Positions 1 to 29,485 of a stretch of DNA of 29,485 nt are shown here, in pieces. This DNA comes from Candidatus Aenigmatarchaeota archaeon (lineage in GTDB: Archaea; Aenigmatarchaeota; Aenigmatarchaeia; Aenigmatarchaeales; JAHLMR01): contig JAHLMR010000007.1 of the NCBI GenBank assembly GCA_018920255.1, positions 1 to 29,485 on the forward strand, in the 5' to 3' direction. The position numbers and the translations under genes are program-made. The notes under the pieces are model-generated. The model did not search any database, had not been told where the DNA came from, and saw nothing but the letters and a program-made list of their open reading frames with translations. Each line of letters starts with the position of its first letter. The first letter of the stretch is position 1.

Positions 1-534
1 GGAGAATAGGTAGAAGTAAAATATTGATATAGTAAGTATAAAGATATGATAAAGATAATAGCAACTAATATTGGTGGAAAAGCAAATATAGAAAAAATTA
101 ATGCAATTCCAGCAATACTTACTAATCCTAAAAGAATTTCTTGCCAGTGATTTTGAACTGCTCTTAAAATAGCAGAGAAAAAGTTTGCTGAAGCTTCTAA
201 TAGTTTTAAACCTGCTTCAATAAACTTTCCTTGAGAAATTAAATAAAATATAGAAGATATTGTATTAAATCCATCGTTAAATGATTTTTTAAGAAATTTT
301 AAAAGACCAGATAAAGCATCACCATTAGAATTTCCCTTAGTATTTTTATTATAGTAATATATAGCACCAAAGCCTGCTCCAAAACTAATTACAGAACTTA
401 TAATTTTATCAAAAGAAGTTGCTTGTCCGGAGATTGGATTAAAAGGTACTGCAAATCCGGGTAGAGAAAAAGATAGTATAGATAAAAAAATAAAAAGAAA
501 TTGACGTTTAAGGAGTTTATTTATTACTTTCATT
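1..534 (-). CDS. Hypothetical membrane/secreted protein, 5' part only (runs off the left edge)
   Basis: I translated the minus strand by hand from ATG at 534: MKVINKLLKRQFLFIFLSILSFSLPGFAVPFNPISGQ... The frame stays open to position 1. It has a hydrophobic N-terminus and a C-terminal hydrophobic stretch. It is absent from the ORF track because it is truncated. Confidence 0.6.
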
Positions 535-646
535 ATAAATAATTTAATTTTATTTATATTTAAAACTTGAAAAATAAAATAAATTTTTTATTGATATGTA
601 ATAAGTTTCTAAATTTGTGAATTTAAAATTGGTGTCGGGGGCGGGG

Positions 647-758
647 ATTTCTCTGCAACTTCTTCGAAGCTTCTTTTTCAAAAAAAGAAGCTTCAGCAAG
701 AAAAACTGTCTTTCTTGATGCAACTTCTTTTTTAAAGAAGTTGCAAAGAAGGTTCTTC
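647..758 (-). other. T-loop intervening sequence of tRNA(CAU), ~112 nt, putative 59/60-type intron (ends +/-2 nt)
   Basis: Lies between GCGGG-TTCAAA and C-CCCGC. It consists of stacked hairpins (GCAACTTCTTT/AAAGAAGTTGC, CAAGAAA/TTTCTTG, GAAGCTTCTTTTT/AAAAAGAAGCTTC). Confidence 0.7.
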
Positions 759-780
759 TTTGAACCCGCGACCTTCAGAT

Positions 781-816
781 ATCTCATTGATTTATTCTCG
801 AAACTCATAAATCTAT
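781..816 (-). other. Canonical 37/38 intron of tRNA(CAU), 36 nt
   Basis: CTCA (nt 32-35) pairs with TGAG just upstream of a 3-nt bulge ATA that precedes TCTGA. An inner helix GATTTAT/ATAAATC completes a bulge-helix-bulge-like fold with both cuts after the second bulge nucleotide. Confidence 0.75.
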
Positions 817-832
817 TATGAGTCTGACGCTC

Positions 833-847
833 TTTCCTGCAATAATG
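833..847 (-). other. Extra ~14-15 nt in the D-loop of tRNA(CAU), candidate micro-intron
   Basis: 24 nt (AGCCTGGTACATTATTGCAGGAAA) lie between D-stem GCTC and GAGC, where 8-11 are expected. Boundaries are not resolved. Confidence 0.4.
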
Positions 848-895
848 TACCAGGCTGAGCCACCCCGACTTTAAAAAAATAATAAAAATTAGAAT

Positions 896-1615
896 TTATA
901 AATTAAAATATTTAAGTGCATCATATATATTATTCACTGCAATTACTTGTATACCTTCTATTACAATATCTTTAATATTTTTCTTTTCATATCTTTTTTC
1001 ACAAATTTCATAACCATTTTGATTTATACATTTTTCAACTGGTGTATAAATATCTTGTTTAAAATTTTCTTCTGGAATTAGAAATATACTAACTCCTTTA
1101 CTTTTTGCTGCTTTAATTTTTTCTAAAATTCCTCCAACTTCTCCTATACTTCCATCTTTTTCTATTGTTCCGGTAATTATAATGCTTTGATTAATAGATT
1201 TGTTTTTTAATGCTGCTATTGTTGCTATTGTAATTGCTGCACCTGCAGAAGATCCTCCTACTAATGTAGCATTATCTGTTTTTATTGTATAGATAATATC
1301 AATATTATTAGTATTTATTCTAGTAATTTCTTCTGCTATTTTTTTAGCTGTTTGAATAGAATCCTGAGTATCAACCCAAAATTTTATTTTATCTATATTA
1401 GTAAGAATTTTTCCAGAACCCGGTTGTATCTCAACTATTAGTTCAGTTAGCACACCTTTATTGTTTTCATCTACTGCAGGTAAATACATTTTTACATATG
1501 AAGAATTTATTTGGGTTTCCTCATAAGAAATTTGATTTTGAAAATAAAAAAATAATAAAAAATATGTTAAAAATATGAAAATTAATATTAAAATAAAATA
1601 TTTAGTATTTTTCAT
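896..1615 (-). CDS. Membrane-anchored Lon-type (S16) peptidase domain protein without an AAA+ module
   Basis: Contains GGSSAGAAITIATIAAL (catalytic Ser motif) and GGILEKIKAAKSKGVSIFLIPEEN (catalytic Lys region), plus an N-terminal TM helix. I moved the start to the MKNTKYF Met at 1615, because the longer ORF (to 1684) overlaps the upstream small gene. Confidence 0.75.
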   Translation of the reverse strand: MKNTKYFILILIFIFLTYFLLFFYFQNQISYEETQINSSYVKMYLPAVDENNKGVLTELIVEIQPGSGKILTNIDKIKFWVDTQDSIQTAKKIAEEITRINTNNIDIIYTIKTDNATLVGGSSAGAAITIATIAALKNKSINQSIIITGTIEKDGSIGEVGGILEKIKAAKSKGVSIFLIPEENFKQDIYTPVEKCINQNGYEICEKRYEKKNIKDIVIEGIQVIAVNNIYDALKYFNL

Positions 1616-2936: not shown

Positions 2937-4160
2937 CTACCACGAATATGATTTTGTTAAAAACTTTATTGTTGAATGAATATAATTTAATGGTGTTAAG
3001 AATATATAAATTGTTAAAAATATTATTAAAATGAAAAAATTATCTTTAATTTTTATTTTTAAATTTATTTTATGAAAGCTTAACCATATCCATAAAAAAG
3101 ATGAAAATATAGAAAAAATACTTAAAATTATAAAAATATTAGGCAAAAGTAAGCTATCAAAATTCAGAATATTTAATAAGTTTACACCATAAAAAGATGA
3201 TGAAAATATAATAAGAATATCATAAAGCCTTGTTAAAATTAAATAAACTGTTAATATAAGCCCCAAAATTGTGAAAAAATATGCAGATATAAATAATGGA
3301 ATAACAAAACAACCAAATCCACTATATTTAGTATTAAATAACATATCTATATGTTTTATTGTTGTTTGCATTCCACCAATATTCCATCTTATTCTTTGAT
3401 GCCACCATTGTTTAAATGTTTCAGGAACAGAAGTTAAAATTTTTATTGGGACTGACATTTTTATTTTATATCCATGTCTTAAAATTCTCCATGCAATTTC
3501 TATATCTTCAGTCATATTATTTTTATCAAAACCACCTATTTCTTTTAATACTTTTTTTCTATAAAGAGCAAATGGTCCTGGAGTTACATATATTGCATTT
3601 AAATTTTCTAAAATTTTTCTACTTAGAATATATAAGATATATTCAATACTTTGGAGTTTTTCTATTATATTTTTTGGCCTATCAACAAAAATAGAAACTG
3701 TTACTGCAGCAACATCTTTATCTTCAAAAAAACCAATAGATTTTAGTAATGCATCTTTTGAAGGATATGTATCAGCATCTATAGTAACAATTATCTCTCC
3801 CTTAGCTTTTTTTAATCCATAATTTAATGCATCTGCTTTTCCTCCATTTTTCTTAGAAAAAACTTTAATTCCTTTTATTTTTTTTAAAATTTCTAAAGAA
3901 TTATCTGTTGAACCATCATTTATAACTATAATTTCAAATTTTTTAGGATATTTTAATTTTTTAACATATTCTATAGTTTTTTTAATACATTTTTCTTTAT
4001 TATAAACAGGTATTAAAATACTTACAGAAGGGAAACTTTTTGGCTTAGAATATGAAACTATATTTTTTCTTGAAATATAAAATAGATTAAAGAAAAAAAT
4101 CATGAAAAAAATACTTGAAATAATTAAAAACAAAAATATCCAATCTAATAAATACATCAT
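2937..4160 (-). CDS. Processive family-2 glycosyltransferase (PgaC/IcaA/NodC/chitin-synthase-like), integral membrane
   Basis: Motifs INDGSTD, DADT, TEDIE and QRIRW (the D,D,D,QxxRW signature), with N- and C-terminal TM helices. Confidence 0.8.
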   Translation of the reverse strand: MMYLLDWIFLFLIISSIFFMIFFFNLFYISRKNIVSYSKPKSFPSVSILIPVYNKEKCIKKTIEYVKKLKYPKKFEIIVINDGSTDNSLEILKKIKGIKVFSKKNGGKADALNYGLKKAKGEIIVTIDADTYPSKDALLKSIGFFEDKDVAAVTVSIFVDRPKNIIEKLQSIEYILYILSRKILENLNAIYVTPGPFALYRKKVLKEIGGFDKNNMTEDIEIAWRILRHGYKIKMSVPIKILTSVPETFKQWWHQRIRWNIGGMQTTIKHIDMLFNTKYSGFGCFVIPLFISAYFFTILGLILTVYLILTRLYDILIIFSSSFYGVNLLNILNFDSLLLPNIFIILSIFSIFSSFLWIWLSFHKINLKIKIKDNFFILIIFLTIYIFLTPLNYIHSTIKFLTKSYSW

Positions 4161-4180
4161 AATTAATACCTTAAGAAAAA

Positions 4181-4213
4181 ATTAAATAAAAACCTGATGG
4201 AAAAACCATCAGG
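4181..4213 (-). terminator. Hairpin plus T-tract downstream of the S-layer gene
   Basis: CCTGATGG-5 nt-CCATCAGG (8 bp stem, 4193-4213), followed on the minus strand by TTTTTATTTAATTTTTT. Confidence 0.55.
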
Positions 4214-4225
4214 CTAATTTAAATT

Positions 4226-6364
4226 CTATTGTACAACTACTGTTTGGAAGTTTTCTCCAGTTACTTTTGCTGAACTGGATGTTATGCTTGCAAGTTTTGT
4301 TCCATCTTGTACTACACGTGCTGCAAGCATTGTATCTTGTGCGCGTGTTCCAGCAATAATTAAAGCTGTCTTTCCTGATGTAAATGCATCTTTAACAACT
4401 TTAATTATTCCAAAGTTTTCTGCTGGCCAGTTTTCACATGTGTAATCAAACTTTCCTGCTGTTGCTAAATCTGCAACTAAGCTGTTTACACATGGACCTC
4501 CTACTAATACTAAATCATAGCCAGATTTATCACTTGCTGAAACTTCGCTGTCAAGTTTAACTACATTTGATGTTATTGGTACTGCTTCTTTATAAGTTGT
4601 TCCTCCAGCAGCAGATGTTTGTATTCCTAATCCAAATTTTCCTTTTACTTGTTGTGCTGGATATTTTATTACAACTTTATTGTTTCCAGCATTTGTTTTT
4701 ACATTAACTAATGTTATTCCAAAATCTGATACGATGTCATGTTCCCATGTTCCAACTTCCGCTGGATTGCCTGCTGTATTATCAAATTTTACATCTCCTG
4801 TTTCTGCATCATCACTAGTTCCTAATCTTATTTTTTTGTCAGCGCTATTATAGTTATAATATGCTTCCCAAGCATTATTTGTTTTTGTACCGAATAGTTT
4901 AGGATGTGTGTTATTTGTATAATTTATTGTATCTGTTGTTTGATCATATGTTAAGCTAGCAATGGTAACCCCTGATGCTCCAGATGCATCTTTCCATTCT
5001 GTTGCATTTACATATCTTGAAGATTTTGAATCATAGTATACAACCATTATATGCTTGTCTGATGTTGTTTTATTAATTAACATATATACATCTTTTTGAT
5101 AACCTTCAACACCATTTATGTTAAATATTGGAACATCTGAGGATAATTTTATTGCAGCTACTTCACTTGATGGTACTAAAATACCATATCCAGATGATGC
5201 TGTACTATTATATACTGTAAATCCAGAAACCGGTGAAATTGTTATTGTTGCATATTTGTTTACTGTAAATCCTTCAAATACAAATCCTGTATAATCTTCA
5301 GGGGTCATTAATTTTTCTCCTGATTTTAGATAAAATGTATTTCCATCTTTATCAGTACCACTGAATTTTACTCCTATGTAATCACTTGTACCCCATTTAT
5401 TTGTATTAGCAAAGCTTATATCCCATTGCCATGATTGATCATTTTCAGTGTATAAATCTCCAGAATTTATTGTTTTTTCAATATCTGACCCAACCGCTGC
5501 AAAAATCTCTGCTTTTGCTACTCCATATACTTGAAATTCATATGCATTTTGTAAATATATTTTTAGATTTCCATTATCAAATTCTTCTGTTGAGCCTTTT
5601 GTTATAATCTTTTGATCAACTAGTGATCCTCCTTTATAAACTGCTATTTCAGCCTGTGTTGAACTTCCCATTATAAATTTTATTTCATAATCTCCAACTG
5701 TTAAGCTTCTTGTTGCATCAATTGTTCCTTTAGTTCCTTTTAATACAGTTATTGAACTACCACCGATTCTTGTTAACAAATAGTCTTTACCTAATATTTT
5801 TATTGAAAGAGGTTTTGTTGCGCTTAATCCACTTAAATCAACTGTTTGAGTTGATATTATTCTATATTCAAATCCGCCTAAATCTTTTGCAACAACTGTT
5901 CCATTATAGATATCTTTATTATTATCTAATGTCATACCTGTACCTAATACTATTTTTTCTTGTAGTGTTGTTTTGTTTCCACCAAAGTTTATATCAAATT
6001 CTTTTAAAGATGGTATTGAAACACTACTAAATTGTGTTGTTCCAAATGCATTATCTATATCTCCGCCAAATTCTACTTCTCTTTCTGGTCCATCAACTTT
6101 AGCTAATCCTGTTCCTGCAACAGATTTTTCTATTGTTGCTTTTCCTGCTAACATTACTGCAACATTTATTGCTCCTGCTACATCTTCTGCTTTTGCATTT
6201 GCTCCAACTACGAATAATGGAAAGCTTACTGTACTATCTGTTACTGATACTAAATCACTGATTTTATTTACTTGAGTTATAGTTGCTGCCATTACAGGTG
6301 CTGCTACTGTTAATCCTGTCATTAAAGCAGATCCTGCTATTGCAGCTAATTTTCTAAATTGCAT
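4226..6364 (-). CDS. S-layer (surface layer) protein precursor
   Basis: Signal peptide MQFRKLAAIAGSALMTGLTVAAPVMA|A and a T/S/G/N/V-rich body. The C-terminal block DLVLVGGPCVNSLVADLA...ALIIAGTRAQDT resembles euryarchaeal S-layer C-termini. There is a strong GGAGG SD and a structured leader. Confidence 0.75.
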   Translation of the reverse strand: MQFRKLAAIAGSALMTGLTVAAPVMAATITQVNKISDLVSVTDSTVSFPLFVVGANAKAEDVAGAINVAVMLAGKATIEKSVAGTGLAKVDGPEREVEFGGDIDNAFGTTQFSSVSIPSLKEFDINFGGNKTTLQEKIVLGTGMTLDNNKDIYNGTVVAKDLGGFEYRIISTQTVDLSGLSATKPLSIKILGKDYLLTRIGGSSITVLKGTKGTIDATRSLTVGDYEIKFIMGSSTQAEIAVYKGGSLVDQKIITKGSTEEFDNGNLKIYLQNAYEFQVYGVAKAEIFAAVGSDIEKTINSGDLYTENDQSWQWDISFANTNKWGTSDYIGVKFSGTDKDGNTFYLKSGEKLMTPEDYTGFVFEGFTVNKYATITISPVSGFTVYNSTASSGYGILVPSSEVAAIKLSSDVPIFNINGVEGYQKDVYMLINKTTSDKHIMVVYYDSKSSRYVNATEWKDASGASGVTIASLTYDQTTDTINYTNNTHPKLFGTKTNNAWEAYYNYNSADKKIRLGTSDDAETGDVKFDNTAGNPAEVGTWEHDIVSDFGITLVNVKTNAGNNKVVIKYPAQQVKGKFGLGIQTSAAGGTTYKEAVPITSNVVKLDSEVSASDKSGYDLVLVGGPCVNSLVADLATAGKFDYTCENWPAENFGIIKVVKDAFTSGKTALIIAGTRAQDTMLAARVVQDGTKLASITSSSAKVTGENFQTVVVQ

Positions 6365-6374
6365 TTATTTCATT

Positions 6375-6440
6375 CCTCCTTTTTATTTTTTGTGCGGTGA
6401 ATGCACAAAAATATAGAGTGCTAACTTTTTGTAGCACTCT
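6375..6440 (-). promoter_or_regulatory. Structured 5' leader of the S-layer gene with SD
   Basis: AGGAGG (6375-6380) lies ~10 nt upstream of the ATG. Hairpin TGTGC-7-GCACA spans 6391-6407 and hairpin AGAGTGCTA-8-TAGCACTCT (9 bp) spans 6415-6440. A possible TATA (TTATAT) sits near 6461-6468. Confidence 0.5.
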
Positions 6441-7948: not shown

Positions 7949-8032
7949 TAAAATCCCTTAGTTAATATTTTAATTTTTTATTTTAAAAAGATTAAATATA
8001 TTAAATAATATGCCCCAGTAGCTCAGTTGGTA

Positions 8033-8045
8033 CAAATGCAAAAAA
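8033..8045 (+). other. ~12-13 nt extra segment in the D-loop of tRNA-Thr, candidate micro-intron
   Basis: The D-loop is AGTTGGTACAAATGCAAAAAA (21 nt). It shares GGTACA..TGCA..AAAGAGC with the D-loop insertion of tRNA(CAU). Confidence 0.4.
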
Positions 8046-8083
8046 GAGCGGCTGCCTCGTAAGCAGCAGGTCGGGAGTTCAAA

Positions 8084-8107
8084 GCAGCTTTTAAAAAATG
8101 AGTAAAA
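8084..8107 (+). other. ~24 nt T-loop insertion of tRNA-Thr (putative intron, ends approximate)
   Basis: TTCAAA|GCAGCTTTTAAAAAATGAGTAAAA|A-CTCCC. Same entry point (after TTCAAA, starts with G) as the long elements. Confidence 0.55.
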
Positions 8108-8138
8108 ACTCCCCTGGGGCTCCAAAGAGGTGCTTAAA

Positions 8139-8716: not shown

Positions 8717-8874
8717 GCGCCATTGGTCTAGTGGTAGGATAGGAGCTTCCCAAGCTCTTGGCCTGGGTTCAAAGAACCTTCTTTCTTAAAGAAAGAAGGT
8801 TCATCAAGAAAGACAAATTTTCTTGATGCAACTTCTTTTTTAAAGAAGTTGCGGGATTCCCAGATGGCGCACCA
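8717..8874 (+). tRNA. tRNA-Gly(CCC) with 84-nt T-loop insertion, CCA encoded
   Basis: GCGCCAT-TG-GTCT-AGTGGTA-GGAT-A-GGAGC-TTCCCAA-GCTCT-TGGC-CTGGG-TTCAAA[84 nt]T-CCCAG-ATGGCGC-A-CCA. Confidence 0.85.
8774..8857 (+). other. T-loop intervening sequence of tRNA-Gly(CCC), 84 nt, three hairpin modules
   Basis: Modules: GAACCTTCTTTC-TTAAA-GAAAGAAGGTTC; ATCAAGAAA-GACAAA-TTTTCTTGAT; GCAACTTCTTT-TTT-AAAGAAGTTGC. It ends with GGG-AT before the 3' exon. Confidence 0.7.
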
Positions 8875-17800: not shown

Positions 17801-17814
17801 ATAAACACCTAATT

Positions 17815-17998
17815 TGGTGCGCCAGCTGGGAATCCCGCAACTTCTTCGAAGCTTCTTTTTCAAAAAAAGAAGCTTCAGCAAGAAAAACTTTTTAAGTTTT
17901 CTTGATGAAACTTCTTTTTCTAAAAGAAGTTTCGAAGCTTCTTCGAACCCAGGTCAGCAGCTTGGAAGGCTGCGGTCCTACCACTAGACTACTGGCGC
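17815..17998 (-). tRNA. tRNA-Gly(UCC) with 110-nt T-loop insertion, CCA encoded
   Basis: GCGCCAG-TA-GTCT-AGTGGTA-GGAC-C-GCAGC-CTTCCAA-GCTGC-TGAC-CTGGG-TTCGAA[110 nt]T-CCCAG-CTGGCGC-A-CCA. Confidence 0.85.
17832..17941 (-). other. T-loop intervening sequence of tRNA-Gly(UCC), 110 nt
   Basis: T-loop UUCG can pair with the intron-terminal CGGG, followed by a 3-nt bulge AUU, giving a half-BHB at the 3' site. The element shares a 53-nt identical block with the Met/Lys element. Confidence 0.7.
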
Positions 17999-19227: not shown

Positions 19228-20061
19228 TCATAACAGAATTTTTTTAAAAATTTCAATTGTATCAACTGGCTCATATTTTAAATCTTTAATGGTTTTTTGT
19301 ATGTTATAATTTCTATCTTCAAAAAATGCAGAAATTGTTTCTTGGGTTATTGGAGGTTCTATATTAATAAAATTACTTAAATTCTTTATTAGAGCAAATA
19401 TTTTTTTAATAAGCTCTATATCCTTTTTTGTAAAATAAATGATTTTATATTTATCTTTTAATGTATTAGCAAGATTTTGAAATAAAAATGAATTTTTATC
19501 TGCTACATAATATATCTCAGAGTTTCCATGAAATATTGAGAGATATATTGCTTCTACTACTTTTTTAAGATAAACCAAATGAAGGTTTAAATCTTTAATT
19601 ATAGGTAAAATTTTAAATTTTTTTATAAGTTTAAGTCTATTTTCATCATATACTGGTGCAATCCTTAATATTGGTATTTTAATGTTTTTTTGAAAATCAA
19701 AGGCTATTTTTTCTGCTTCTTTTTTACTCTTGGAATATAATGTTTCTGTTTTTTCTGTTACTGCAACAGAACTAATATAAATAACTCTTTCAATTCCTTC
19801 CTCTTCAGCAACCTTTAAAATATTATAAGTACCATTAACATTTATATTTTTTATTTTTTTGTAGTCTCCACTATATTTTTTTAATGCTGCTAAATGAATT
19901 ACAACATCAGAATTTTTTATTGTTTTTTTAATGTGTGATGTATTAGTAATATCATAACCTAAGGATTTTGAAAACATTATAACTTTATGACCTTTATTAT
20001 TAAGATATTTTACAACTTCTTTTCCTATATAACCTGTTGCTCCAGTAACAAAAACCCTCAT
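19228..20061 (-). CDS. NAD-dependent epimerase/dehydratase (SDR) family protein
   Basis: MRVFVTGATGYIGKEVV is a Rossmann GxxGxxG; YSKSK fits YxxxK. Confidence 0.8.
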   Translation of the reverse strand: MRVFVTGATGYIGKEVVKYLNNKGHKVIMFSKSLGYDITNTSHIKKTIKNSDVVIHLAALKKYSGDYKKIKNINVNGTYNILKVAEEEGIERVIYISSVAVTEKTETLYSKSKKEAEKIAFDFQKNIKIPILRIAPVYDENRLKLIKKFKILPIIKDLNLHLVYLKKVVEAIYLSIFHGNSEIYYVADKNSFLFQNLANTLKDKYKIIYFTKKDIELIKKIFALIKNLSNFINIEPPITQETISAFFEDRNYNIQKTIKDLKYEPVDTIEIFKKILL

Positions 20062-20072
20062 AAAAATCTCTT

Positions 20073-20259
20073 TGGTGGGCCCAACGGGATTCTCTGCAAC
20101 TTCTTCGAAGCTTCTTTTTCAAAAAAAGAAGCTTCAGCAAGAAAAACTGTCTTTCTTGATGCAACTTCTTTTTTAAAGAAGTTGCAAAGAAGGTTCTTCT
20201 TTGAACCCGCGACCTTCCGCTTAAGAGGCGGTTGCTCTACCAGACTGAGCTATGGACCC
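20073..20259 (-). tRNA. tRNA-Lys(CUU) with 110-nt T-loop insertion, CCA encoded
   Basis: GGGTCCA-TA-GCTC-AGTCTGGTA-GAGC-A-ACCGC-CTCTTAA-GCGGA-AGGTC-GCGGG-TTCAAA[110 nt]T-CCCGT-TGGGCCC-A-CCA. One A27/A43 mismatch and two G:U pairs. Confidence 0.85.
20090..20199 (-). other. T-loop intervening sequence of tRNA-Lys, 110 nt, identical to the tRNA(CAU) copy
   Basis: 20092-20216 equals 651-775 base for base in my manual alignment. Confidence 0.75.
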
Positions 20260-20298
20260 TTAAAAAATAAAGAGAATCAAAAATTTTTAAAATCTTCT

Positions 20299-20487
20299 TT
20301 ATTTTTTTCTATTTCCCTTTCCTAAAATTTCTTTCCAAGCCCATCTAAAAGAACGTAATCTTTTATTTGGATAACCGCATGCAGCACATTTCTTTTTTTG
20401 AATGTGATACGAATTTCTTCCACATCTTCTACATCTTATATGAGTTATTTTATTGTGTTTACCAAAACTTGGAGTTCCCTTAGTCAA
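20299..20487 (-). CDS. rpl37e: 50S ribosomal protein L37e (eL37)
   Basis: [40 protein letters not shown]. Confidence 0.95.
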
Positions 20488-27852: not shown

Positions 27853-28131
27853 ATGTTTGGAAAAATTGAATCAATAATAAAAGAAAAAAATTTGAAATTA
27901 TCTGATTGTGATTATCATACAATGAGAAGCTTAGAGAACGGCGGAAAAATTAGAGCTTTGGTTTTAAAGGGTGAAAAAATAGCTCATGTTGAATATATTT
28001 GTCCAAATTGTAAAAATTATGAATATAAAACAATAGAGTGGAAACAAGTTTCTAAAGGTGCAAAATATAGATTTACTGTAGATTGTGGAAAATGTGGTTT
28101 TAAAATTAAAGTTGAAAAGCTGAAAAAATAG
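27853..28131 (+). CDS. Zinc-ribbon protein, hypothetical
   Basis: CPNCKN...CGKCG, 92 aa. Confidence 0.5.
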   Translation: MFGKIESIIKEKNLKLSDCDYHTMRSLENGGKIRALVLKGEKIAHVEYICPNCKNYEYKTIEWKQVSKGAKYRFTVDCGKCGFKIKVEKLKK

Positions 28132-28155
28132 ATTAAGTAGATATTAGATTCCTAT

Positions 28156-28222
28156 TTTACATTTTTAACTTCAGTAAATACTAATTCTCTGTCTTTTGTT
28201 TTTGAAATAATATCGAATTTTA
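28156..28222 (-). pseudogene. Decayed fragment of the PD-(D/E)xK-like gene found at 29129-29485
   Basis: 67 nt with 4 mismatches versus 29349-29415. It translates as KFDIISKTKDRELVFTEVKNVK and is bounded by stops on both sides. Confidence 0.7.
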
Positions 28223-28277
28223 GGACCTATTGAAATGAAGTTTTCTTTGTTTCACATATCTATTATTATTTTTCCGT

Positions 28278-29126
28278 TCAGATTAAATATTCTTTTACAT
28301 TCCATAATGTTTTATATTCTTCTAAACTTTTGAAAAATTCTTCTTTATTTTCAGCTAAAGCACTTACTATTAAATTATAAAACAAATAATCACGATATTT
28401 TTTGTATTTCTCTTTTTGAGCTTTAGTTAATTTTTTCTTATCTAAAGGAAAATGTAAAAGAAAGAATATACCTCCATCATCAAATACTTCTTTCTTAAGT
28501 GCAGGGGCATTTTTTACTTCTTGAGGTAAAATTTCTAAAAATTTTGGACCGAAAATGTAAAACGGTGAATTAAATGCTGCTATTATCCAACCATCAATTA
28601 CTTTATTGAAATCTGTTTCTTTGGGTAATCTTTTATGTTTTAAAATAAAATCCCAAACAGTTATTGCACTTGTTGCATCTTCATCTTCTAAAATACTATA
28701 AATAGAATAAACTAATGAAGGACGAACAAGTAAATATAAATCTTTAACAAAATTAATAATTAATTTTTGATTTTTAATTGATTTAATCTCTCCATCTGTG
28801 GAGAAAGCTATCATGTCCCATTCTATTTTTTTTCTGTCTTTATTTACATCTTTAGGGAAAAAAGAAATACCAACCAAACTGCTAAATACTTTAAAATCTA
28901 AATATAAATTAAATAAATCTCTTTTTTTACATCTTTCGCTCCAACGTTTTATTGCTTCATCTAATGTGTAATCAACATAATCAAGATTTTCATTTTCATA
29001 TTTAGTTAAAAACTTTCCATTATATTTTTTAATAATCAAATCAGCTACTTTTTTAAGTACTTCTTCTGTTATTGGTATTGTTTGTTCGAAACATACAACT
29101 AAACGTTTTTCTTTTGAAATTGACAT
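28278..29126 (-). CDS. Hypothetical protein (282 aa), no recognisable motif
   Basis: Long ORF. The ATG at 29126 lies 2 nt after the upstream stop (TGAATATG); the track start TTG is at 29132. Confidence 0.6.
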   Translation of the reverse strand: MSISKEKRLVVCFEQTIPITEEVLKKVADLIIKKYNGKFLTKYENENLDYVDYTLDEAIKRWSERCKKRDLFNLYLDFKVFSSLVGISFFPKDVNKDRKKIEWDMIAFSTDGEIKSIKNQKLIINFVKDLYLLVRPSLVYSIYSILEDEDATSAITVWDFILKHKRLPKETDFNKVIDGWIIAAFNSPFYIFGPKFLEILPQEVKNAPALKKEVFDDGGIFFLLHFPLDKKKLTKAQKEKYKKYRDYLFYNLIVSALAENKEEFFKSLEEYKTLWNVKEYLI

Positions 29127-29128
29127 AT

Positions 29129-29485
29129 TCAATCAACCTTATCTATTACTATTATATCAATATTATATATTGATTTAAATTCTTCTAATTTATTTAAAAT
29201 AGTTTTTGGTATTTTTTCATGTGATATAAATCTATATTTAATTTTTTGATTAATTTCAATGTTTTTAAGAAAAATAAGATGTGATTTTATTTGTTTTATT
29301 ATTTCTTTGAAATCTTTAGTTTCGGAATTTTCATAAATTTTTTCCCAATTTACATTTTTAACTTCAGTAAATACTAATTCTCCATCTTTTGTTTCTGAAA
29401 TAATATCGAATTCTATGTTTTCTGTTTCTTTTTCTCTAATTCTTTTAATCTCTTTAATAGCATTTTCATTTATTTTAATATTTTT
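29129..29485 (-). CDS. C-terminal part of a PD-(D/E)xK-like nuclease-fold protein (possibly DUF234-type), 5' end outside the window
   Basis: I translated 118 codons plus stop by hand, in frame to the window edge. The core is EFDIISETKDGELVFTEVKNVNW (D...E-x-K). Confidence 0.55.
   Translation of the reverse strand, partial: KNIKINENAIKEIKRIREKETENIEFDIISETKDGELVFTEVKNVNWEKIYENSETKDFKEIIKQIKSHLIFLKNIEINQKIKYRFISHEKIPKTILNKLEEFKSIYNIDIIVIDKVD
29349..29415 (-). repeat. Direct repeat partner of 28156-28222
   Basis: 63/67 identical in a manual alignment. The two copies are 1193 bp apart and bracket the 282-aa gene. Confidence 0.8.

Follow-up and report, generated by a model that had tools for sequence, protein, structure and literature searches.

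Can a tRNA gene that is broken up three times, in the D-loop, beside the anticodon and in the T-loop, still be a working gene? The question is raised by a locus at positions 630..869, on the minus strand, of an archaeal DNA stretch of 29,485 nts from Candidatus Aenigmatarchaeota archaeon (contig JAHLMR010000007.1, positions 1 to 29,485, assembly GCA_018920255.1). This whole stretch, which has a GC content of ~25 % and belongs to the DPANN lineage Aenigmatarchaeota, is referred to below as the window. An initial annotation made from the letters of the sequence had proposed that the locus is a tRNA(CAU) gene split by three intervening segments. We consider it probable, at roughly 85 %, that it is a functional tRNA(CAU) gene of the elongator type, whose precursor of ~240 nts would contain three protein-spliced introns, the one at position 59/60 stemming from an amplified family.

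The interrupted tRNA(CAU) locus

Neither ARAGORN nor Rfam (at the gathering threshold and at E<=10) detects a tRNA in the raw window, and a permissive Rfam scan of 500..1000 (E<=10) returns nothing but hairpin noise of miRNA/sRNA type below threshold. On the minus strand, from 869 to 630, the locus is laid out as GUCGGGG-U-G-GCUC-[24-nt D-loop]-GAGC-G-UCAGA-CUCAUA-[36 nt]-A-UCUGA-AGGUC-GCGGG-UUCAAA-[112 nt]-C-CCCGC-CCCCGAC-A-CCA and can be divided into the following parts, in which hBHBh' denotes a bulge-helix-bulge (BHB) with its outer and inner helices and hBH a relaxed form reduced to helix, bulge and helix.

630..869 (-): interrupted tRNA(CAU) gene, probably of elongator-Met type, 240 nts including the encoded CCA
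849..869 (-): exon 1, acceptor 5' strand, D-stem 5' strand and D-loop to U20 (GUCGGGGUGGCUCAGCCUGGU)
834..848 (-): putative intron 1, 15 nts, D-loop position 20/21, ACAUUAUUGCAGGAA; relaxed hBH or bulge-helix-loop
817..833 (-): exon 2, A21, D-stem 3' strand, anticodon stem 5' strand and anticodon loop to A37 (CAU)
781..816 (-): putative intron 2, 36 nts (AUAGAUUUAUGAGUUUCGAGAAUAAAUCAAUGAGAU), canonical position 37/38; near-strict hBHBh'
759..780 (-): exon 3, A38, anticodon stem 3' strand, variable loop, T-stem 5' strand and T-loop U54-A59
647..758 (-): putative intron 3, 112 nts, T-loop position 59/60; relaxed hBH
720..744 (-): hairpin A of intron 3, GCAACUUCUUU-AAA-AAAGAAGUUGC, 11 bp, perfect
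697..717 (-): hairpin B of intron 3, CAAGAAAGACAGUUUUUCUUG
666..694 (-): hairpin C of intron 3, GAAGCUUCUUUUU-UUG-AAAAAGAAGCUUC, 13 bp, perfect
630..646 (-): exon 4, C60, T-stem 3' strand, acceptor 3' strand, discriminator A and CCA

Excision of 15 + 36 + 112 nts at 20/21, 37/38 and 59/60 leaves a flawless cloverleaf of 77 nts that ARAGORN calls as tRNA-Met(cat), which bears out the proposed tRNA(CAU) with three inserts. The dimensions given by the initial annotation are all correct on the reverse complement: a gene of 240 nts, a D-loop of 24 nts before splicing (flanked by GCUC and GAGC), a 36-nt segment at 37/38, and a T-loop element of ~112 nts, the unspliced T-loop including its insert measuring 119 nts and the insert hence 112 nts. 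Because of a repeated A, placement of the D-loop insert at 20/21 is equivalent to 21/22. All three inserts occupy documented positions, 20/21, 37/38 and 59/60 being listed archaeal tRNA intron sites (PMC4090602), and a count of up to three introns in a single gene agrees with the published maximum of three (PMC3239211, PMC8450103). Intron 3 consists of three perfect hairpins and a 3' segment that duplicates the 3' arm of hairpin A. No self-splicing group I or group II intron and no known intron-borne RNA is matched in Rfam at E<=10, and by inspection the C/D box elements UGAUGA and CUGA occur together in no intron copy.

The geometry of the splice sites differs between the three inserts. At 37/38, the 5-bp anticodon stem adjoins a central helix of 4 bp (CUCA/UGAG) with bulges UAA and AUA, and the inner helix comprises U-A, an A.A mismatch and GAUUUAU/AUAAAUC, i.e., 8 bp around a single mismatch. 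The BHB drawn at this site by the initial annotation (CUCA/UGAG, AUA bulge, GAUUUAU/AUAAAUC) is confirmed and is completed by the UAA bulge and the mismatch. In the D-loop, the D-stem is followed on its 3' side by an AAA bulge, then by a 4-bp helix CCUG/CAGG closed by an 11-nt loop that contains the 5' cut. In the T-loop, the T-stem serves as outer helix, a 3-nt bulge (AUC) lies directly ahead of C60/C61, and the central helix joins U54-U55-C56-A57 to the intron sequence AGAA through 3 of 4 pairs. The 5' cut, after A59, falls in a loop; in the minimum free energy (MFE) fold, this loop caps a small hairpin between exon and intron, GGGUUC[AAAGAA]GAACCU. Fold analysis agrees in this respect with the earlier remark that a clear helix-bulge is present only at the 3' cut of the T-loop insert.

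Comparison with orthologous CAU genes, which had been suggested as a check, provides a history for each intron. The nearest relative, reached via the pilin encoded 1 kb from the gene (69 % pilin identity, 66 % DRG identity, 40 % GC), carries the orthologous tRNA(CAU) on a syntenic contig (L071). Its acceptor, D and T stems are identical to those of the window gene and its anticodon stem differs by three compensatory base-pair changes. The D-loop, AGCCUGGUA, is uninterrupted and is exactly the spliced product predicted for the window, while the 59/60 intron has just 10 nts, with a perfect UUCA/UGAA helix followed by an ACG bulge. Introns at 37/38 homologous to that of the window (..UUAUGAGUKUCGAG..UGAGAKA) are found in L071 and at two metagenome loci, L128 and L180. 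The nearest relative's contigs around DRG contain no tRNAs.

A wider census used the 21-nt exon 1 as query and returned 120 metagenome loci with an identical 21-mer at their start, 115 of which hold a complete tRNA-Met gene of the elongator type; these come from a wide range of archaeal lineages with 31-69 % GC. A 37/38 intron is present in 115/115 and a D-loop insert in 0/115; the T-loop has 7 nts in 113/115, and the other 2/115 carry a 59/60 insert, of 34 nts in L131 (near-strict BHB) and of 87 nts in L180. The latter locus (53 % GC) combines a ~90-nt 37/38 intron of the window's family with a GC-rich 59/60 intron and extends long T-loop introns of tRNA-Met to a second lineage. A 10-nt match, UGCAGAGAAA, between the 3' end of the window intron and the L180 T-loop intron is marginal (20/2000 shuffles) and was not used as evidence. 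In L128, the anticodon intron is of the window's family and the T-loop is uninterrupted, its UUCAAAC being the predicted product of the window gene.

Judging from this distribution, the 37/38 intron appears to be old, common to the clade and ordinary, the 59/60 site of tRNA-Met seems already to have borne a short intron in relatives, and the D-loop intron looks like a recent gain, its type being found again in tRNA-Thr and tRNA-Glu of the same organism. Because the 5' exon and the 37/38 intron are so widely conserved, an elongator tRNA-Met is favoured over tRNA-Ile2. Intact exons, orthologues with matching products and recurrence in independent assemblies uphold the initial view of a real gene rather than debris.

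Other interrupted tRNA genes and the 59/60 hairpin family

The CAU gene is not alone. A custom detector finds exactly five tRNA genes in the window, with zero false positives; it takes T-arm and acceptor as anchors, removes inserts at 59/60 and from the D-loop, and passes the product to ARAGORN for confirmation. A scan for GC-rich islands was also used to find them; since tRNA exons have 57-62 % GC in a genome of ~25 %, such simple scanning finds disrupted RNA genes effectively here. Together with two genes on a longer contig of the same organism (L198), the sample beyond tRNA-Met is as follows.

8012..8124 (+): tRNA-Thr(CGU), 13-nt D-loop intron at 8032..8044 and 24-nt 59/60 intron at 8084..8107
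8717..8874 (+): tRNA-Gly(CCC), 84-nt 59/60 intron of the hairpin family at 8774..8857
17815..17998 (-): tRNA-Gly(UCC), 110-nt 59/60 intron at 17832..17941
20073..20259 (-): tRNA-Lys(CUU), 110-nt 59/60 intron at 20090..20199, identical to the Met intron
L198: tRNA-His(GUG), strict 19-nt 37/38 intron, normal T-loop
L198: tRNA-Glu(CUC), 11-nt D-loop mini-intron (CGGU/GCCG and AAA bulge), normal T-loop

Removal of the inserts restores a canonical cloverleaf in all five window genes as well as in His and Glu. All seven sampled genes are interrupted, by 10 introns in total or 1.43 per gene, and all seven encode the 3' CCA. Published averages are 0.21 introns per tRNA gene for archaea overall and 0.84 for Thermoproteales, the record being 71 introns in 46 genes (PMC8450103). 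A 59/60 insert is present in 5/5 window genes and in 5/7 genes overall; the idea that every tRNA of the organism has a T-loop intron was discarded in view of the normal T-loops of His and Glu, so that this intron is frequent but not universal. The interrupted genes recur in independent assemblies, namely NCBI metagenome-assembled genomes (MAGs) and one Logan assembly of SRR27170999; MAGs matching by exact protein, all labelled 'Candidatus Aenigmatarchaeota archaeon', are GCA_038998125.1, GCA_038999495.1, GCA_038998315.1, GCA_038999525.1 and GCA_044343185.1. No conserved promoter motif could be separated from the AT-rich background in the regions upstream.

The strict hBHBh' form is seen at 37/38 of Met, apart from its one A.A mismatch in the inner helix, and at 37/38 of His; the D-loop and T-loop introns do not have it. 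They share relaxed motifs instead. At 20/21, a D-stem, an AAA bulge and a helix of 3-4 bp constitute a mini-intron design common to Met, Thr and Glu, in which the 3' segment co-varies with the D-loop of its own gene (CAGG/CCUG, CAAA/GUUG and GCCG/CGGU, respectively). At 59/60, a helix of 3-4 bp forms on the T-loop sequence UUCR in 4/5 window genes and one of 2 bp in Thr. The clearest case is Gly(UCC), with T-stem, AUU bulge and UUCG/CGGG helix, and the same arrangement of T-stem, 3-nt bulge and UUCR helix is found in L071, L131 and L180. When the acceptor and T stems are enforced during folding, the hBH persists at a cost of 0-1.8 kcal/mol over the MFE.

The 59/60 inserts thus appear to follow a junction rule, according to which the 4 nts ahead of the 3-nt bulge pair with UUCR. 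Among seven introns (the five of the window, L071 and L131), pairing occurs at 23/28 positions, P~1e-5 against random positions within the same GAA-rich inserts, or ~1e-4 on the six independent introns; L180 obeys the rule as well (UUCA/UGGA). The window contains 98 TTCRAA hexamers; 93 are empty, and the five T-loop ones alone hold an insert. Scanning every pair of cut sites for BHBs without constraints was abandoned, as it produced dozens of false 'strict' motifs from GAA/UUC-rich sequence and missed the real 37/38 intron on account of its one mismatch; tests limited to product-restoring cuts, combined with positional randomisation, took its place.

The four long 59/60 inserts (Met, Lys, Gly(UCC) and Gly(CCC); 84-112 nts) form one family with a mean column identity of 83 %, and those of Met and Lys are identical across 110 nts. 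Each comprises three perfect hairpins, the longest stems having 13 bp, and ends in a 3' segment in which one hairpin arm recurs. Modules have been shuffled between copies: in Gly(CCC), the third hairpin has the stem that Met and Lys carry in hairpin A, with its loop complemented. Between homologous hairpins, inspection reveals three compensatory base-pair changes and neither mismatches nor G.U pairs. When 262 kb from this organism and from relatives were searched with a covariance model of the family (R1), every copy found lay in a tRNA T-loop. The family has no match in plasmids or phages; in GTDB representative genomes, the exact exon-intron junction pattern gave 53 hits, all of them chance matches in unrelated DNA, and an exact pattern internal to the intron gave 0 hits in JGI metagenomes and IMG/VR.

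Two features by which transposed introns are recognised are found here: high similarity between introns of tRNAs with different identity, and absence from the orthologous genes of relatives, as expected of a recent gain. The latter applies to Met, which has just 10 nts at the site in L071 and none in L128, and to Lys in L060-L062, more distant relatives in which the syntenic tRNA-Lys adjoining LSm has the same T-stem and an uninterrupted 7-nt T-loop. The identity of the Met and Lys copies suggests that the family has spread recently at the DNA level. The two copies are flanked on their 5' side by 16 identical nts. The family may have moved by gene conversion, using the T-arm that the genes share, by template switching where palindromes occur, or with the help of a transposase; that the stems are perfect palindromes is a hint of a process acting on DNA.

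Proposed splicing and its alternatives

How might such a transcript be matured? Transcription would yield a precursor of ~240 nts with three BHB-class introns; an EndA of broad specificity would cut both the strict motif (37/38) and the relaxed hBH motifs (20/21 and 59/60), and an RtcB-type ligase would join the exons. In the relaxed motif, the neighbouring tRNA stem would act as outer helix, the 3-nt bulge would bear the 3' cut, the 5' cut would lie in a loop, and the 3' end of the intron would pair over 3-4 bp with the exon immediately ahead of the 5' cut. The exon's contribution to this splice helix at 59/60 would be the universally conserved T-loop UUCR (nts 54-57). Because UUCR is universal, an intron whose last bases are a purine-rich tetramer and three more could fit into, and be spliced from, any tRNA, which offers a simple rationale both for the recurrence of 59/60 as an intron site and for the spread of one family across tRNAs. 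DPANN EndAs with an L3 loop have been associated with increased tRNA gene disruption (PMC5829648).

Several points weigh against this reading. No EndA (PF01974, PF02778) or RtcB match occurs among the genes of the ~46 kb examined. Without enforced stems, the MFE folds have the intron competing with the T-stem; no defined bulge holds the 5' cut of either the D-loop or the T-loop introns, and the central helix at 59/60 has 3/4 pairs in Met, Lys and Gly(CCC) and 2/4 in Thr. Cut positions are ambiguous by 1-3 nts at repeated A or G (in Gly, UUCGAAU vs UUCGAUU), and the 112-nt intron is ~9x longer than the 59/60 intron verified experimentally. Finally, we infer the splicing of the Met introns from their geometry and by analogy with the in-vitro cleavage of an intron from ARMAN-2, a DPANN archaeon discussed below.

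One could instead suppose that a palindrome array, akin to miniature inverted-repeat transposable elements (MITEs) or palindrome-associated transposable elements (PATEs), has inactivated these tRNA genes, so that the locus is a pseudogene with functional copies elsewhere. The 11-13 bp stems, perfect and without G.U pairs, do resemble DNA-level palindromes, as do the shuffled modules, one with its loop complemented, and the identical Met and Lys copies; the hairpin family is also absent from relatives and from the public collections searched. This is nevertheless very improbable. DPANN genomes usually have single-copy tRNA genes, and 7/7 genes are interrupted here, including both Gly isoacceptors, yet every set of exons gives a flawless cloverleaf, and the anticodon stem has changed in a compensatory manner with respect to L071. 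The inserts are confined to a position where hBH introns are documented and keep a 3' end that pairs with UUCR; only 5/98 TTCRAA hexamers are occupied, all in T-loops; the covariance search of 262 kb found no copy outside tRNA genes, and neither target-site duplication nor terminal inverted repeats were seen. The slightest chance among the biological readings goes to retention of the T-loop insert in the mature tRNA as an expansion arm at the elbow, between nts 59 and 60. These two nucleotides lie outside the five-nucleotide T-loop core, and with the cloverleaf enforced the insert folds as an independent domain. Such an arm has no precedent, however, and a 110-nt domain at the elbow would be expected to clash with whatever reads the elbow, RNase P and the ribosome included. 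The T-loops of His and Glu in the same organism are normal, the content of the insert varies freely (84, 110, 112 and 24 nts) while the junction rule holds, and the short inserts of L071, L131 and ARMAN-2 show hBH geometry, the last being cleaved in vitro (PMC3239211). Chance resemblance or an assembly artefact, for which nothing speaks except that ARAGORN and Rfam detect no tRNA in the raw window, is already refuted by the presence of the same genes in independent assemblies (NCBI MAGs and Logan), by perfect cloverleaves after excision and by orthologues on 120 metagenome contigs.

A further alternative accepts that the introns are spliced but holds that a selfish hairpin array invaded a pre-existing short 59/60 intron, or splice-competent T-loops, through template switching, gene conversion or a hairpin-recognising transposase, so that growth occurred by invasion and not by intron spread at the RNA level. 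We regard this as possible but doubtful. The tRNA-Met of L071 already has a 10-nt 59/60 intron, other lineages have 34 and 87 nts, and the short 3' end of the window intron, ..GUUGCAGAGAAAUC, resembles that of L071, ..GUUGAAACG; perfect palindromes, module shuffling and the acquisition of an identical copy by tRNA-Lys where relatives are uninterrupted point the same way. Against it, neither a transposase nor a free copy was found (copies were sought in 262 kb, whereas the transposase was not searched for genome-wide), there are just three distinct long copies to judge from, the likeness to L071 covers only a short stretch, and the three compensatory changes that keep the stems perfect can be explained by a constraint on RNA or on DNA. 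It is in the same way a tentative suggestion that the hairpin element is a selfish 'intron cassette' of DNA palindromes that spreads between tRNA genes by means of the UUCR half-helix. If so, any tRNA would be a safe landing site, the lineage would be driven toward record intron density, and the series from none through 10 and 87 to 112 nts in Met, and from none to 110 nts in Lys, would be a live snapshot of intron gain and growth.

On the favoured reading of a functional, spliced gene, a single organism would combine an old intron (37/38), a recent mini-intron (20/21) and a recently amplified long family (59/60), with orthologues bracketing each gain, and the 59/60 introns would illustrate how a universally conserved exon sequence, UUCR, can provide half of a splice helix. 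There are practical consequences too. None of the five window tRNA genes is seen by ARAGORN or by the Rfam tRNA model; genomes of this lineage will therefore look tRNA-poor, MAG quality scores that count tRNAs will be biased, and spurious open reading frames (ORFs) will be called across the genes (for example 623..808 and 19987..20325). Kaneta et al. 2018 had suspected 'unidentified disrupted tRNA genes' in DPANN (PMC5829648).

Genomic context and comparison with known systems

ORFs of 54-112 amino acids that run across tRNA genes, at 623-808 (-), 17814-17987 (+), 19987-20325 (+) and 20000-20164 (-), are artefacts; the hairpin array translates as ...FFEASFSKKEASARKTVF..., which gene callers may annotate as hypothetical proteins. 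Genuine products of the window include a class III signal-peptide pilin, an S-layer protein, FlaJ-like proteins, PCNA, primase, GINS, LSm and L37e, among others. The 5' part of a membrane-protein gene with its upstream region (window 1-509, minus strand, MKVINKLLKRQF...) has a second copy, ~98 % identical, in other assemblies. It lies ~916 nts past the window end (L069 6529-7036; L070 1-136) and is followed by DNA ligase and Hjc, not by tRNA-Met; the duplicated segments may be either paralogues flanking a ~30-kb segment or the result of a strain rearrangement. That the window is a ~30-kb circle, as the adjoining ends in one 48-kb record might suggest, was ruled out, because this record continues into DNA ligase, Hjc and Cdc45.

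Differences between strains (99-99.98 % identity) cluster in two hotspots, at ~4000-6400 and ~28000-29485, for which reason identity between strains is unusable as evidence of selection. The first hotspot is the S-layer protein gene (50/75 differences vs L066), whose product in the window has no exact sequence match on record; the second comprises the last ~2 kb (121/135 differences vs L054), where a 74-nt direct repeat, 92 % identical, lies at 28149 and 29342. Relatives offered further observations. The L071 contig encodes a tRNA-Trp(CCA) at 737-895 (-) with an 87-nt canonical intron of a size typical of Trp introns bearing a C/D-box guide, and on L077 (31 % GC) a tRNA at 4697-4796 (+), miscalled Ser(aga) by ARAGORN, has a 26-nt insert in the anticodon arm that is probably a non-canonical intron. 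In Aenigmarchaeota relatives, a single product of ~1911-1916 amino acids matches Rpb2 (RpoB) domains 1-7, Rpb1 (RpoA') domains 1-2 and more, which suggests a fused RNA polymerase B-A' subunit gene:

L057 13137-18872: Rpb2-Rpb1 gene, possibly fused
L060 11295-17045: Rpb2-Rpb1 gene, possibly fused
L063 13309-19059: Rpb2-Rpb1 gene, possibly fused
L064 13069-18819: Rpb2-Rpb1 gene, possibly fused

The closest known counterpart of the T-loop introns comes from ARMAN-2 (Ca. Micrarchaeum), whose pre-tRNA-Cys(GCA) has a 13-nt 59/60 hBH intron cleaved in vitro by a broad-specificity EndA (Fujishima et al. 2011, PMC3239211) and whose pre-tRNA-Pro(GGG) has two T-loop introns (PMC3239211). Both have a DPANN host and more than one intron in a gene, and in both the insert at 59/60 forms a relaxed hBH whose outer helix is the T-stem. 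Unlike the 13 nts of ARMAN-2, however, the putative Aenigmatarchaeota T-loop introns have 84-112 nts (24 in Thr) with triple perfect hairpins and form a sequence family common to four tRNA genes. The 37/38 intron of the window is of the same kind as the conserved canonical intron of archaeal elongator tRNA-Met, found with a strict BHB in 115/115 orthologues, with nothing essential different.

Thermoproteales have multi-intron tRNA genes and 'large-scale intron transposition' (Sugahara 2008 and Fujishima 2010, as summarised in PMC4033280, PMC4090602 and PMC8450103). They resemble the present organism in having up to three introns per gene, including 20/21, 37/38 and 59/60, and highly similar introns in unrelated tRNAs, which imply a recent spread of DNA, and intron density is comparable (10 in 7 genes here vs 71 in 46 in P. 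calidifontis). Thermoproteales belong to TACK, whereas the window is from an AT-rich DPANN genome whose long copies are all at 59/60 rather than at many sites and consist of modular palindromic hairpins. A eukaryotic case is the Guillardia theta nucleomorph, where an elongator tRNA-Met has three introns, including in the D and T arms, whose excision was established by reverse transcription PCR (PMC4090602); its inserts have 3-24 nts and form no repeated intron family.

As for mobile elements, MITEs and PATEs (derived from IS200/IS605) and repetitive extragenic palindromic (REP) elements are short, non-coding, near-perfect hairpin repeats with identical copies at several loci. Compared by description only, the hairpin family resembles MITEs and PATEs in its build and in its identical copies at several loci. 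It differs in residing only in tRNA T-loops, a splice-competent site, and in the lack of detectable terminal inverted repeats or target duplication; dispersed copies were not found either, nor was a transposase, which was not searched for genome-wide.

No mention of these assemblies was found in the literature searched. Three introns per gene, all three positions, the relaxed hBH, with its DPANN precedent, and the spread of similar introns in Thermoproteales are already published. What is distinctive here is the lineage, Aenigmatarchaeota, together with the length of the T-loop intron family, its modular build of perfect hairpins, its restriction to a single site, the very high density of introns and the complete invisibility of the genes to ARAGORN and the Rfam tRNA model.

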